Origin: Escherichia coli
GTDB lineage: Bacteria; Pseudomonadota; Gammaproteobacteria; Enterobacterales; Enterobacteriaceae
Strand: one strand, 5' to 3'
DNA: 64,000 nucleotides
Assembly: GCF_041886205.1 (NCBI RefSeq)
Contig: NZ_CP169029.1
The translations under genes and the position numbers were made by a program. Under the pieces are notes generated by a model, which did no database searches, was not told the origin of the DNA, and saw nothing but the letters and a program-made list of their open reading frames with translations. Shown one piece after another: positions 3,751 to 58,091 of the stretch. Each line of letters opens with the position of its first letter. Within the stretch, counting starts at the first letter, position 1.

Positions 3751-6139
<2,389 letters not shown>

Positions 6140-6192
6140 TCTTTACGCCATTAACTTCTTAAATTCATACGATGCAAAAGGCATCGCTACAA

Positions 6193-7260
6193 TTACGCCC
6201 GGGCAGCCCGGCTCACTTCATTTGCCACTCGCTCGGTGGCATCCGGAATGGATGCAGCGCGGGCGCGTTCTGCCATGGTTAATAAGGTTTCTCGCGACCA
6301 CCCGGCCAGGGTGTTGGCGACAGCATCCACGCTAAGCTGTGGCTGCTCGATAATTTTGGCTGCGCCCGCTTTTTCCAGCGGTAGCGCATTCCAGTATTGC
6401 TGGCGGTCTTTATGTTGAAACGGTACAAACAACGCCGGTAGTCCCGCCGCGGCGATTTCACTCACCGTTAACGCACCAGAGCGGCAAACGACGACATCCG
6501 CCCACGCATACGCCGCCGCCATATCATCAATAAATTCCGTCACTTTATGCTGCGGTTGCCCCGCTTCGGCATACGCCTGTTCAACGGATTGTTGCGAACC
6601 TTTGCCGCTCTGATGCCAGATAGTGACTGAATCACCCAGTTTCGCAGCAACCTGCGGCATTGTCTGGTTAAGAATGCGTGCGCCCTGGGAACCACCCACT
6701 ACCAGCACACGAACCGGACCTTCACGTCCAGCCAAACGTTGCTGCGGCAACGGTAGCGCCAGCACATCGGTACGCACCGGGTTACCCACCACTTCCGCAT
6801 TAGGGAAAGCGCCTGGAAACGCCTGCATCACTTTGGTGGCAATCTTCGCCAGCCATTTATTGGTTAAGCCCGCAATACCGTTTTGTTCATGAAGTACAAC
6901 CGGAATGCCTAACGACCACGCGGCCAGACCACCAGGACCTGATACGTAGCCGCCCATACCGAGCACCACGTCAGGTTTGTACGCTTTCATAATCGCCCGC
7001 GCCTGACGCCAGGCATTGAAGATACGCAGCGGCGCAGCTATCAGTGCTTTTATACCTTTTCCACGCAGACCAGAGATACGAATGAAATCAATTTCGATGC
7101 CATGTTTTGGCACTAAGTCCGCTTCCATACGGTCGGCAGTCCCCAGCCAGCGAACTTGCCAACCCTGAGCCATTAGATGGTGCGCAACCGCCAGTCCCGG
7201 GAATACATGTCCACCGGTTCCGCCTGCCATCACCATTAATCGCTTTCCTTGACCACTCAT
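6193..7260 (-). CDS. murG: Lipid II synthase MurG (UDP-GlcNAc transferase, 355 aa)
   Basis: ORF track 355 aa, [26 protein letters not shown]... Confidence 0.96.
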
Positions 7261-8501
7261 CGTGAACCTCGTACAAACGCCTGCGCTTTCTCCAGACGCG
7301 TTTCATAATCAATACGCAACAGCATCATGATGGCTGTCGACATAATCAGTAAGCTCGAACCACCGTAACTGATCAGCGGCAATGTCAGACCTTTGGTCGG
7401 TAACATCCCCGCCGCCGCGCCTACGTTAACCAGCGCCTGGAAGCTAAACCAGATGCCAATGGAACAGGCGAGAAAACCGGAAAAACGGTGGTCAATTTCT
7501 AACGCTTTGCGGCCAATCGACATCGCACGAAAAGCGACGAAGAATACCATTAAAAGTGCCAGCACCACACCGACATACCCCAGTTCTTCGCCGATAATGG
7601 CGAAAATAAAGTCAGTGTGCGCTTCCGGCAGATACTCCAGTTTTTGTACCGAGTTACCTAAACCTTGCCCCCAAAGTTCGCCGCGACCAAACGCCATCAG
7701 CGATTGCGTTAACTGATAGCCGCTGCCAAAGGGATCTTCCCACGGGTTCCAGAATGCGGTAACACGGCGGATACGGTACGGTTCGGCGAGTATCAGCAAC
7801 ACAACCGCTGAAATGCCCATACCGATAATGGCAATGAACTGCCACAATTTCGCTCCCGCCAGGAACAACATCGCCAGCGTAGTCACAAACAACACCACCA
7901 CCGTACCAAGGTCTGGCTGTGCCAGCAGTAACACTGCCAACACCAGAATCACGCCCATCGGTTTCAGGAAGCCGCGCAGGTTATTACGTACTTCGTCGCC
8001 TTTACGCACCAGATAGTTGGCGATATAGCAAAACAGCGACAGTTTTGTCAGCTCCGCAGGCTGGATACGCAGCAAACCGAGATCGATCCAACGCGATGCC
8101 CCTTTAACCGAGCTACCCACTACCAGCACGATCATCAGCAGGATGATAGATCCGAGCAGCATCGTGGCACTGTAGCGTTGCCAGAACTCCATCGGCAGAC
8201 GCAGCGTAATGATCGCCAGAATAAACGCCAAAATCAGATAGACGCCATCACGCTTCGCGAAGAAGAACGGATCGTTGGTTAAGCGTTGCCCTATGGGCAT
8301 TGACGCCGAGGTCACCATGATAAAGCCAATCGCCGCGAGGCCGAAGGTCAGCCACAGTAAGGTGCGATCGTACATGATCAGGCTGTCGGTATCTTTTTCC
8401 CGCGAGCCCATCACCCAGCCCTTTAGCGCCGTGGAGATCCAGACCAGGATACTGAATCCTGGCAGGCGCGGCATTTTCAGGCGAGGGAGAGATAAACGCA
8501 T
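7257..8501 (-). CDS. ftsW: Peptidoglycan glycosyltransferase FtsW (SEDS family, 414 aa)
   Basis: ORF track 415 aa starting MM; known protein starts at the second Met ([15 protein letters not shown]...); polytopic membrane protein. Confidence 0.93.
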
Positions 8502-9817
8502 CAACCTAACTCCTTCGCCAGACGGGCAAACTCATTGCCTCGTTGTTCAAAGTTCTTGAACTGATCAAGGCTGGCACAGGCCGGGGAGAGCAGAACCATA
8601 TCGCCCAGCTGAACACGCGGAGCCAGCAAGCGCATCGCCTGTTCCATAGTTTCGGTTTGTTCTGCCACTTCCGGACGTAGCGCCGCCAGCTGCGCGCCGT
8701 CACGACCGAAACAATACAGACGTACGTTATCGCCATTCAGGTAACGCGCCAGTGGGCTAAAGTCCGCCGATTTACCATCGCCGCCCAGCAACAAATGCAG
8801 CGTGCCGTCTACGTGCAGGCCATTCAGCGCCGCTTCCGTACTGCCGACGTTGGTCGCTTTTGAATCGTTAATCCAGCGCACACCGTTATGCTCCAGCACC
8901 ACTTCAAAGCGATGCGGCAGACCAGTGAATGTGGTTAACGCTTTCAGGCTGCTGGCGCGCGGTAACCCTGCGGCATCTGCCAGCGCCAGCGCCGCCAGCG
9001 CATTGGTGTAGTTATGCTGCCCGGAAATTTTCATTTCTTTCACGTTCAGCACTTTCTCGCCTTTCACCCGCAGCCAGGTTTCGCCCTGCTGATGATTCAG
9101 GTGATAGTCACCCATGTTGACGCCAAAGCTGACGCAGCGTTCATCCGCACCACGAATCGGCATTGTTAAGGCATCATCAGCATTAACCACGCAAACTTTT
9201 GCGTTTTCGTAAATGCGCAGTTTTGCTGCACGATACTGTTGTAAACCAAACGGATAGCGATCCATATGATCTTCAGTCACGTTCAGAATGGTCGCTGCAA
9301 CCGCCTGTAAGCTGGAGGTGGTTTCCAGCTGGAAGCTCGACAGTTCCAGCACGTACAGTTCACACTCATCATCCAGTAGCATCAACGCAGGCAAGCCAAT
9401 ATTGCCACCCACACCAACGTTAACCCCCGCCGCTTTCGCCATTTCACCCACTAGCGTGGTGACCGTGCTTTTGCCGTTAGAACCGGTAATCGCCACAATC
9501 GGTGCTTGTGCTTCGCGACAGAACAGCTCGATATCGCCAACGATTTCGATTCCGGCATCAGCGGCAGCGCTTAAGGATGGATGCGCCAGTGCAATACCGG
9601 GACTGGCGACAATTAGATCTGCCGCCATCAGCCATTCATCATTCAGACTGCCCGTGTGGCGTTCTACGGCTTCGGGTAATTTATCCAGGCCTGGCGGTGT
9701 CATACGCGTATCCATAACGCGCGGCGTCACACCGCGAGCGAGGAAAAAGTCCACGCAGGAAAGCCCGGTGAGGCCCAGGCCGATAATGACAACATTTTTA
9801 CCCTGGTAATCAGCCAT
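8501..9817 (-). CDS. murD: UDP-N-acetylmuramoylalanine--D-glutamate ligase MurD (438 aa)
   Basis: ORF track 438 aa, [25 protein letters not shown]... Confidence 0.96.
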
Positions 9818-55817: not shown

Positions 55818-56666
55818 ATGGCGACATACCTTATTGGCGACGTTCATGGTTGTTACGATGAACTGATCGCATTGCTGCATAAAGTAGAATTTACCCCTGG
55901 GAAAGATACCCTCTGGCTGACGGGCGATCTGGTCGCGCGCGGCCCGGGTTCGCTGGATGTTCTGCGCTATGTGAAATCCTTAGGCGACAGCGTACGTCTG
56001 GTGCTGGGCAATCACGATCTGCATCTGCTGGCGGTATTTGCCGGGATCAGCCGCAATAAACCGAAAGATCGCCTGACACCGCTGCTGGAAGCGCCGGATG
56101 CCGACGAGCTGCTTAACTGGCTGCGTCGCCAGCCTCTGCTGCAAATCGACGAAGAGAAAAAGCTGGTGATGGCCCACGCAGGGATCACGCCGCAGTGGGA
56201 TCTGCAGACCGCCAAAGAGTGCGCGCGCGATGTAGAAGCGGTGCTGTCGAGCGACTCCTATCCCTTCTTCCTTGATGCCATGTACGGCGATATGCCAAAT
56301 AACTGGTCACCGGAATTGCGGGGGCTGGGAAGACTGCGTTTTATCACCAACGCCTTTACCCGTATGCGTTTTTGCTTTCCAAACGGTCAACTGGATATGT
56401 ACAGCAAAGAATCGCCGGAAGAAGCCCCTGCCCCACTGAAACCGTGGTTTGCGATTCCTGGCCCTGTCGCTGAAGAATACAGCATCGCCTTTGGTCACTG
56501 GGCATCGCTGGAAGGCAAAGGTACGCCGGAAGGTATTTACGCGCTGGATACCGGCTGCTGCTGGGGTGGGTCATTAACCTGCCTGCGCTGGGAAGATAAG
56601 CAGTATTTTGTCCAGCCGTCGAACCGGCATAAGGATTTGGGTGAGGGAGAGGCGGTCGCGTCTTAA
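55818..56666 (+). CDS. apaH: Bis(5'-nucleosyl)-tetraphosphatase (symmetrical) ApaH (282 aa here)
   Basis: ORF track 282 aa, [16 protein letters not shown]...; metallophosphatase GDx[14 protein letters not shown] motifs. C-terminus ...[10 protein letters not shown] differs from my recollection of K-12 (...DLGEAAAS). Confidence 0.95.
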
Positions 56667-56690
56667 CGAATTACCATTCAGGGAGGAATA

Positions 56691-57290
56691 ATGGCTGACT
56701 ATTTTGAAATACGTGCTGATTACAATCAGCACACCATCACGGTTTATCAGGCTTACAATGATGCAATCGCTGACGTCGCCGTACGTAACGGGCGATTTGG
56801 CGCACCTTTTTCATTCAACCGCATGACCTGGATTAAACCCTCTTTTATGTGGATGATGGAGCGTAGCAACTGGGGACTGAAAAAAGATCAACAACACATT
56901 CTCGCAATCCGAATCAAACGCACCTTCTTTGATACATTGCTGGAACAAGCGGTGCTAACCACGCCGGAAGCCCATGTGTATCCACATGCAGGCATTTGGG
57001 AAACGTTATTTGCACAAGCAAATGTGTATGTTCAGTGGGATCCCGAACGCAGTATAAATGGTAAAAAACTGGAGCACCGATCATTACAGCTTGGTATTTC
57101 CCGTAACTTGATCAGTCAATTTAACGAAGACGCCATTGTTGCCATTGATGATCTGACTCCGCTGGTGCGAAAGTGTCATAACCTTTTGATAAACGGTAAA
57201 ACAACACAGGCGAAATCCTTCCTGCCGCCAGAAAAAATTTACCCTGTTAGTGCAGCTGCGAGAAAGGCTTTGGGAATGAAAAATTCCTGA
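56691..57290 (+). CDS. Hypothetical protein (199 aa), first gene of the apaH–folA insertion; possibly DUF4291-like
   Basis: ORF track 199 aa; strong GGGAGG Shine-Dalgarno 7 nt before the ATG; low GC (~40-45%); TWIKPSFMWMMERSNWG motif. DUF assignment is from memory only and is low confidence. Confidence 0.8.
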   Translation: MADYFEIRADYNQHTITVYQAYNDAIADVAVRNGRFGAPFSFNRMTWIKPSFMWMMERSNWGLKKDQQHILAIRIKRTFFDTLLEQAVLTTPEAHVYPHAGIWETLFAQANVYVQWDPERSINGKKLEHRSLQLGISRNLISQFNEDAIVAIDDLTPLVRKCHNLLINGKTTQAKSFLPPEKIYPVSAAARKALGMKNS

Positions 57291-57325
57291 GACAAATACG
57301 CGCCTATTAAGCGGAAAATATTTAA

Positions 57326-57775
57326 GTGCGACAAATCAACACCGGGCTTAATACCAGAGAAATTATTCTGGAAATGATTGACGAAGCAGATGCCCCCCCA
57401 TTTGCTGAGCAGCGGACCTGGCATCGCAGGCGAATCGCTTTTCTATGTGATTGCATCAGCGTTGCTGTCGACTACGGCTTCTTCTGTTCTGTTTCTCAGC
57501 AGTCAATAATGAACATAACCAGGATGGCTGAAGATGTATGGATAATAGAAAGTAAAATGACACAACTCATTGATATCTGGCAACAACTTCAGCGGCTTTA
57601 TCCGCCAAACATTATTCCCTGCACCCAGCAGTTACCCGCTAAAGAATTGCTTGAACTGCTACTTTCCAGTCCTGACGATCTTCGAATAGTTGAAATCCCT
57701 GACATCATCGGTGATGTTTTTGATGACCAAACCTGGATTCGATTATTCAAAAAACACTTTGCTGATATTATCTAA
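57326..57775 (+). CDS. Hypothetical protein (149 aa from GTG 57326, or 133 aa from ATG 57374), second gene of the apaH–folA insertion
   Basis: ORF track 149 aa; co-oriented 35 bp after the first ORF; weak RBS at both candidate starts; acidic, Cys-containing, no recognisable motif. Confidence 0.6.
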   Translation: MRQINTGLNTREIILEMIDEADAPPFAEQRTWHRRRIAFLCDCISVAVDYGFFCSVSQQSIMNITRMAEDVWIIESKMTQLIDIWQQLQRLYPPNIIPCTQQLPAKELLELLLSSPDDLRIVEIPDIIGDVFDDQTWIRLFKKHFADII

Positions 57776-58012
57776 CTACGATGTGATGTGTAACAATCCA
57801 AAATACATCGCCAGACGATAGACCAAAAAGAAAGTATTTAGCAGATACTCAACATTCTGACTTCTGTACAGAAATAGCAGAGTTTAAAAACTTAAAACTT
57901 CCGGTACTCATTAGAGAAACATCCAGTTTCTTCTGCAAATTCATTTAATGCCGAGATGGCATCCTCGTTTACTTCAGTCCACTGTAGAGTAGCTTGAGGA
58001 TTTAGACCTACG

Positions 58013-58045
58013 CAGTGAGCGCGACTCACAAAATCGCGCTCACTG
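58013..58045. other. Perfect 11-bp inverted repeat (stem-loop) about 47 bp downstream of the folA stop
   Basis: cagtgagcgcg-actcacaaaat-cgcgctcactg; no U-tract on either side. K-12 has a REP element in the equivalent position (recollection). Confidence 0.6.
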
Positions 58046-58091
58046 GTAAAATCAGACGTCTTATCGTTCAATTTGTAGTCATGGCAAAAAC

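Follow-up and report, generated by a model that had tools for sequence, protein, structure and literature searches.

What occupies the gap between apaH and folA in those Escherichia coli strains in which these two convergent core genes do not lie almost end to end? The question was raised by a segment of low GC content (positions 56667-58091) in a stretch of 64,000 nucleotides of E. coli DNA, here called the window (RefSeq assembly GCF_041886205.1, contig NZ_CP169029.1). The segment, which we term the islet, carries two small genes, ORF1 and ORF2 (ORF, open reading frame), and a sequence-only reading had ranked it as the strongest candidate in the window for an undescribed system, possibly a toxin-antitoxin, immunity or small defence module. 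We are confident that the islet is a catalogued allele of a published insertion hot spot. Its best description, which we regard as moderately probable, is a decayed ccd locus combined with two functionally independent cargo genes, ORF1 encoding an enzyme of ADP-ribose chemistry that acts on the RNA or nucleotide side.

The anatomy of the islet was found to be as first described, with an apaH-folA gap of 1425 bp at the coordinates given and two co-oriented frames of 199 and 149 aa. The GC content, which had been noted as visibly lowered, is 0.33-0.48 over positions 56700-58000 compared to roughly 0.50-0.60 in the flanks, and the K-12 gap indeed measures 77 bp and contains a repetitive extragenic palindromic (REP) element. 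Hallmarks of an integrative island were not detected in the region, as no integrase, no tRNA (by tRNA scan) and no Rfam RNA is present, in agreement with the earlier remark that neither an integrase nor a tRNA flanks the islet. A repeat search at the islet ends likewise yielded no target-site duplication, no flanking direct repeats and no terminal inverted repeats.

Of 5,426 complete E. coli genomes, 536 (~10%) contain the whole arrangement, and ccdB of the allele ccdAB-O157 was found at the same site in 2,025; sampled records from the other complete genomes, whose total is uncounted, show the short gap of the K-12-type allele. The segment is thus not universal at this site and represents accessory DNA in a core intergenic position, as had been supposed. 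It is absent from K-12, is found in many natural E. coli strains, O26 and O111 among them, and also in E. whittamii, E. albertii and E. fergusonii, and is 100% identical between the window and E. coli strain wlxctx60. Variants containing insertion sequences (IS) were also found. Homology among the three alleles extends to the stop codon of apaH and sets in again 4 nt ahead of that of folA, all sequence in between being different. Even the end of apaH depends on the allele: next to the islet or to ccdAB-O157 the protein has 282 aa and closes with GEGEAVAS, and next to the REP allele it has 280 aa and closes with DLGEAAAS (positions 56640-56666 of the window compared to 1230-1261 of the K-12-type locus). 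A deviating C-terminus had already been noticed at the junction. Since this length polymorphism tracks the site allele, the recombination or insertion boundary lies inside the last apaH codons.

In three papers citing Mine et al. 2009 (Genetics 181:1557), the folA-apaH region is described as highly variable or plastic and prone to the insertion of foreign DNA (PMC3184786, PMC7167474, PMC7232551). The islet occupies the identical site of this variable ccd-O157 locus, with the stop codons of apaH and folA as its limits, and all three of its genes (ORF1, ORF2 and a ccdA remnant) are already annotated by RefSeq, so that it cannot be called an undescribed system. The abstract of the 2009 study reportedly lists a class with a ccdA-O157 remnant on a large piece of DNA together with ORFs of unknown function, as well as a class of IS-containing variants, and is said to conclude that ccd-O157 evolves neutrally at the folA-apaH site. 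The class with the ccdA-O157 remnant would correspond to the islet. What our analysis adds to the secondary citations found is the identity of these ORFs, which are not recognized there as a DUF4291 protein with an ADP-ribosyltransferase (ART) fold and a truncated member of a rare family.

The 316 bp following ORF2 (57776-58091) had been taken for non-coding DNA. No feature could be assigned to about 116 bp of it, but from about 57892 to 58082 the minus strand carries the ccdA remnant. Alignment to ccdA-O157 showed that the C-terminal half alone is recognizable (80% DNA identity). The original ATG at 58082-58080 is followed by a TGA after four codons, and a 1-nt indel, a 42-nt in-frame internal deletion and the loss of the ~76-bp promoter/leader of ccdAB-O157 complete the damage; RefSeq lists a coding sequence of 45 aa for the frame still open (57892-58071, minus strand). 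No ccdB sequence was found in the islet when it was aligned to the ccdAB-O157 allele. An intact CcdA/CcdB system was therefore ruled out. Toxin-antitoxin material nevertheless does reside at the site, as the sequence-only reading had suspected, in the form of ccdAB in the 2,025 genomes mentioned and of the ccdA remnant here. O26, E. whittamii and a divergent Escherichia clade carry identical lesions; being common to different species and clades, these indicate that the islet allele arose once and was then inherited or spread by recombination.

Within the remnant, an inverted repeat (58013-58045) lies 47-79 nt downstream of the folA stop codon. Read as RNA of the folA strand it folds into a hairpin of -28.6 kcal/mol (z = -6.3), which is kept in every islet-bearing Escherichia allele with at most one G-U change and is absent from ccdA-O157. 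The predicted hairpin may stabilize the 3' end of the folA transcript, taking over the 3'-end role of the REP element in K-12.

ORF1 matches the Pfam family DUF4291 (PF14124) over the full length of the model (E = 2.2e-68, model positions 1-180 of 180), so the statement that neither protein carries an assignable motif does not apply to it. This family was independently proposed in a 2025 survey to be an atypical ART-like family with the motifs QA[YF], WIK and [AS]IQ that lacks the key catalytic glutamate, and is widespread in fungi and other eukaryotes (PMC12522546). All family motifs are present in ORF1 as Q20-A21-Y22, W47-I48-K49 and S131-L-Q133; in an alignment of 59 sequences QAY and WIK form invariant or nearly invariant columns, and all 37 invariant family columns are retained by the E. 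coli protein. Identity amounts to 81% with the homologue of Superficieibacter, 68% with that of a Listeria species and 53-60% with those of Bacteroidota, the family comprising ~7,800 clusters at 90% identity. Among Escherichia alleles the ratio of nonsynonymous to synonymous substitution rates (dN/dS) of ORF1 is 0.05-0.12, compared to 0.04-0.08 for apaH.

The AlphaFold2 model of ORF1, calculated with the 59-sequence alignment, reached a mean predicted local distance difference test score (pLDDT) of 95.6 and displays the split beta-sheet NAD+-binding core of the ART fold. The nearest solved fold is the C-terminal toxin domain of RhsP2 (PDB 7RT7), with a sequence identity of 10%. Searches of PDB by sequence, either with single sequences or with a profile of the 59 DUF4291 sequences, gave no match, and scans of ORF1, ORF2 and the ccdA remnant against NCBIfam, PADLOC and PHROGs yielded nothing significant (best PHROGs E value 0.018). 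No DUF4291 homologues were found in phages. A signal peptide is not apparent in the N-terminal sequence of ORF1, judged by eye with no predictor run. By the published mapping of the motifs (PMC12522546), the position of the beta-5 glutamate in the catalytic triads (H-Y-E, R-S-E, R-Y-E) would be taken by Gln133, and the key glutamate appears to be missing.

ORF1 begins 24 nt past the apaH stop codon and is preceded by a GGAGG Shine-Dalgarno sequence. A terminator scan predicted none between apaH and ORF1, which is why read-through transcription from the rsmA(ksgA)-apaG-apaH operon is likely; a combined promoter and terminator scan of the islet gave no excess of predictions over shuffled sequence.

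ORF2 belongs to no catalogued family. No Pfam, NCBIfam or PADLOC model matches it, Pfam recognized no family in six members of the ORF2 family, and full-length relatives gave nothing significant with NCBIfam, PADLOC and PHROGs. A Foldseek search of AFDB50 with the ORF2 model returned its own E. coli entry only. A word-indexed search found Escherichia sequences only, and an exhaustive HMMER search produced five matches in 1.84 billion cluster representatives; among 100,044 species genomes there are four loci, in E. whittamii, Superficieibacter electus, a Spirochaetales and a Synergistaceae metagenome-assembled genome (MAG). The full-length relatives have 189-240 aa and share an N-terminal CxxC-x(12-13)-CxxC module and an invariant WHRRRI motif. 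E. coli ORF2 is without this module and has a weak ribosome-binding site. Its identity amounts to 48% with the protein of Superficieibacter and 56% with P0134, a relative from another enterobacterial scaffold, and its dN/dS of 0.16-0.43 lies well below 1 across Escherichia clades and genera. The AlphaFold2 model based on six sequences predicts an all-helical protein of seven helices (pLDDT 85.5). On these sequence comparisons we are confident in describing ORF2 as an N-terminally truncated, partly eroded and moderately constrained member of a rare family. As both ORF1 and ORF2 have homologues and are under purifying selection, they are genuine genes and not chance reading frames. A seeming truncation of ORF2 (P0007) was discarded because the assembly concerned fragments all neighbouring genes.

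One distant relative of ORF2, P0136, is encoded in a co-oriented array of ~15 small genes together with SMI1_KNR4/SUKH, Imm26, DUF4304 and DUF6138 members and without DUF4291. The array, located on metagenomic contigs, consists of genes of 110-470 aa, many of them without any family, and resembles a poly-immunity locus, although the 10.7 kb inspected showed no toxin gene. For ORF2 itself, neither membership of an Imm or SUKH family nor an adjacent toxin gene was found, and the occurrence of P0136 in the SUKH/Imm26 array is what points to an immunity-like nature.

Do ORF1 and ORF2 form a module? They are an adjacent co-oriented unit on the same strand, separated by 35 nt. At the same site, Superficieibacter carries DUF4291, a gap of 200 nt, a full-length ORF2 and then a PRiA4_ORF3 gene on the opposite strand, with no ccdA. 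This one site, in Escherichia and Superficieibacter, is where the pair was seen. The relative P0134 is the sole gene in the apaH-folA gap of its scaffold, and no DUF4291 gene lies close to the relatives from Spirochaetales and Synergistaceae. Conversely, an ORF2-family hidden Markov model run against the neighbours of DUF4291 in ten loci outside Escherichia and Superficieibacter found no ORF2-like partner. The expectation of a conserved two-gene cassette was thus not borne out by neighbourhood comparison. Natural alleles point in the same direction: in one lineage, represented by at least three independent samples, a 2-nt insertion frameshifts ORF2 at about codon 54, and in another an IS1 end lies at about codon 107 of ORF2, the 199-aa DUF4291 protein being intact in both. 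An O111:H8 genome shows the reverse, with DUF4291 frameshifted and ORF2 intact. Orphan relatives, partnerless DUF4291 genes and naturally disrupted alleles together argue against an obligate toxin-antitoxin or toxin-immunity pair. Of the features that define a type II toxin-antitoxin system, neither conservation of the pair across independent lineages, nor an indispensable antitoxin, nor a match to a known model was found for ORF1 and ORF2.

More can be learned from the company of DUF4291 elsewhere. In Prevotella and Chryseobacterium it is part of NrtR-headed operons that also encode NADAR, ADP-ribosylglycohydrolase (ARH), KptA and Macro domain proteins; the Prevotella operon contains two NADAR and three ARH genes, and that of C. 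lactis additionally a bacterial PARG, SIR2, DUF2971, a 2OG-Fe oxygenase and an adenylosuccinate-synthetase-like gene. These operons give the impression of a battery that erases ADP-ribose and repairs RNA. Both also hold several small genes without a Pfam match. Bacterial PARG is the only known eraser of the RNA 2'-OH ADP-ribosylation of the RhsP2 type, and PARG and NADAR have been proposed as defences against ART toxins (PMC11833690). The neighbourhoods sampled here (NUDIX/NrtR, Macro, ADP_ribosyl_GH, PTS_2-RNA) agree with the published survey, which lists TetR, NUDIX, Macro, ADP_ribosyl_GH and PTS_2-RNA (PMC12522546). No recurrent partner was found in Listeria, Streptomyces, Ralstonia, Flammeovirga and two metagenomic contigs. 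In Treponema saccharophilum (pTS1, 3977-8528), DUF4291 heads a series of co-oriented small hypothetical genes including one for an SMI1/KNR4 protein and probably those behind two DUF6985 Pfam matches; among the contexts sampled it is the sole one that resembles an immunity array.

Taken together, we favour the following account. The islet is one of three common alleles of the folA-apaH site in Escherichia, formed when a ccd locus decayed, with ccdB gone and ccdA reduced to a pseudogene, and became joined to two cargo genes that function independently of each other. ORF1 would be a maintained, cytoplasmic, stand-alone DUF4291 enzyme with an ART fold, probably transcribed by read-through from the upstream operon. 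Its most likely ligand is NAD+ or an ADP-ribose derivative, and its most likely substrate a nucleic acid (RNA) or a nucleotide. Its role would lie in endogenous ADP-ribose and RNA-end chemistry similar to that of KptA/Tpt1, not in self-poisoning. For ORF2, the most plausible role is that of a binding or immunity-type protein that has stayed behind at the site. Several points weigh against this account. The chief reason for caution is that the catalytic glutamate of ARTs appears to be replaced in DUF4291 (S131-L-Q133), so that the protein may bind NAD+ without transferring ADP-ribose or may carry out a different chemistry. Moreover, the family is known from sequence, predicted fold and neighbourhoods alone, most of the neighbourhoods sampled are uninformative, and co-transcription of apaH and ORF1 would follow only from the 24-nt spacing and the lack of a predicted terminator. 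Finally, the C-terminal 94-aa fragment of ORF2 encoded by the frameshift allele might keep its function, which would weaken the argument from natural knockouts.

The islet might instead be an assembly of protective parts without toxins, namely the ccdA antitoxin remnant, an immunity-type binder (ORF2) and an ART-fold counter-enzyme (DUF4291) that, by Tpt1-like repair or as a decoy, protects against incoming ADP-ribosylating or other polymorphic toxins. The position of P0136 in the ~15-gene SMI1_KNR4/SUKH, Imm26 and DUF4304 array is consistent with this proposal, as are the Treponema DUF4291 at the head of an array with an SMI1/KNR4 protein, the Bacteroidota DUF4291 among ADP-ribose erasers of which PARG and NADAR are thought to counter ART toxins (PMC11833690), and the solitary P0134, since orphan immunity genes stand alone as well. 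However, each family offers one array example only, ORF1 and ORF2 match no Imm-family Pfam model, and DUF4291 is also widespread in fungi and other eukaryotes and is unusually conserved for an immunity protein (PMC12522546). We consider such a protective role rather unlikely. The same doubt attaches to its more specific version, according to which DUF4291 writes a reversible ADP-ribose mark on RNA 2'-OH or phosphate groups, erased by PARG, Macro or ARH proteins, or performs Tpt1-like repair as part of an NrtR-controlled, toxin-protective battery, and DUF4291 and ORF2 would each be protective in an islet of orphan immunity genes. That the whole islet is functionless DNA eroding like ccdA, with the ORFs as survivors of annotation, appears very unlikely to us. 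The ccdA pseudogene, the truncated ORF2 with its GTG start and weak ribosome-binding site, the circulating disrupted alleles of both ORFs and the reportedly neutral evolution of ccd-O157 at the site would all fit such decay, but ORF1 has a dN/dS near the apaH values and retains every family-invariant residue, the dN/dS of ORF2 stays well below 1 as well, and the allele persists in four Escherichia species (E. coli, E. whittamii, E. albertii and E. fergusonii).

Least probable of all is a two-gene toxin-antitoxin or small defence module, with DUF4291 as an RhsP2-like RNA-modifying ART toxin and ORF2 as its cognate antitoxin or immunity protein. Here the sequence-only reading was right about the presence of ccd material at the site and went astray with regard to the two ORFs, for which there is no conserved pair, natural losses of either gene occur and no PADLOC, NCBIfam or PHROGs model matches. 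Such a module would be suggested by the adjacent, co-oriented genes with their 35-nt gap, by the same gene order at the same site in Superficieibacter, by the faster evolution of the downstream gene (48% identity compared to 81% for the upstream one), by a predicted ORF1 fold that is nearest to a bona fide RNA-ADP-ribosylating toxin, and by the existence of both an orphan ORF2 and an allele with a dead DUF4291 and an intact ORF2. Against this stand the confinement of the pair to one lineage and site context, the other ORF2 relatives lacking DUF4291 and the other sampled DUF4291 genes lacking ORF2, and the alleles in which DUF4291 is intact and ORF2 is frameshifted or disrupted by IS1. DUF4291 also appears to lack the canonical catalytic glutamate (PMC12522546), and E. 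coli ORF2 is without the N-terminal module of its family. The account of a decayed ccd locus with two independent cargo genes remains the one we prefer. The coordinates of all features are compiled in Table 1.

Table 1. Features of the islet between apaH and folA and of its core flanks (positions in the window).
Feature	Position	Strand	Remarks
apaH, left core flank	55818..56666	+	282-aa allele; homology with the other site alleles ends exactly at the apaH stop codon
apaH-ORF1 spacer	56674..56690	+	strong Shine-Dalgarno sequence cagGGAGGaataATG
ORF1 (DUF4291), 199 aa	56691..57290	+	RefSeq WP_000796363.1
ORF2, 149 aa, GTG start	57326..57775	+	in-frame TAA directly before the start
AT-rich spacer, ~116 bp	57776..57891		GC ~0.34-0.38; no assignable feature
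ccdA-family antitoxin pseudogene	57892..58082	-	alignment to ccdA-O157
Perfect 12-bp inverted repeat	58013..58045		inside the ccdA remnant
folA, right core flank	58092..58571	-	homology to the other alleles starts again at 58088

The PRiA4_ORF3-family gene of Superficieibacter electus (206 aa, folA strand, 6558-7178 of the locus) represents a third cargo gene at the same apaH-folA site, for which scans against NCBIfam, PADLOC and PHROGs gave nothing significant; it indicates that the hot spot gathers different small genes in different enterobacteria. Parts of the islet were also encountered on plasmids. The IncY plasmid pPK5074-69kb carries an IS1-truncated ORF2 followed by the ccdA remnant and folA, adjoining blaTEM-1, and pSW2367-1 (IncF/N/R) carries the last ~30 codons of ORF2 beside IS1, then the ccdA remnant, folA, kefC and kefF, again adjoining blaTEM-1. 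In the chromosome of E. coli EF7-18-58, an IS1-ccdA remnant-folA block with the same FolA protein (WP_130560492.1) is located next to aldB/yiaW; this block is either a transposed copy or an IS1-mediated rearrangement of the native locus. A chromosomal block derived from the islet allele has been mobilized by IS1 and IS26. The mobilized block looks like a mobile extra copy of folA and is possibly relevant to trimethoprim tolerance.

As a genomic feature, the islet matters little, except as an example of a chromosomal toxin-antitoxin locus that has decayed and been overwritten. Its interest lies in the proteins. DUF4291 is a large cross-kingdom family with a confidently predicted ART fold, present here in a single-copy, polymorphic E. 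coli locus with natural knockouts both of it and of the neighbouring ORF2. The islet therefore offers a handle on the chemistry of this family, and especially on RNA as a possible substrate, as is the case for its nearest structural relative RhsP2. Should the reading as a protective battery prove true, an islet that O26, O111 and other natural strains carry and K-12 lacks would open the largest uncharacterized ART-like family to direct tests in the best genetic system. With ORF2, a protein family that is very rare and in no catalogue comes in addition.

Compared to known systems, ORF1 is a full-length DUF4291 protein, and the survey of this family likens its members to diphtheria-toxin-like enzymes, predicting a protein substrate and an effector role (PMC12522546). 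In contrast, the nearest solved fold identified here belongs to an ART directed at RNA, and there is no sign that the E. coli protein is secreted; RhsP2 is not mentioned in that survey (PMC12522546). RhsP2 of Pseudomonas aeruginosa ADP-ribosylates the 2'-OH of structured RNAs by means of an R-Y-E triad and is inactive as the variant E1576Q (PMC12340436). It forms the tip of a secreted Rhs effector of the type VI secretion system (T6SS) and has a cognate immunity gene, whereas ORF1 would be a stand-alone cytoplasmic protein with the motifs Q-A-Y, W-I-K and S-L-Q and without a dedicated immunity gene across its family. Also among the closest known systems are DUF416 proteins and SsdAI (PDB 7JTU chain B), which confers immunity to SsdA, a T6SS deaminase. 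The RNA 2'-phosphotransferase KptA/Tpt1 has an ART fold without the canonical catalytic glutamate and is a non-toxic enzyme that uses NAD+ to act on RNA. ORF1 would resemble KptA/Tpt1 in these respects, and the likeness extends to gene context, as KptA and DUF4291 share operons in Bacteroidota.

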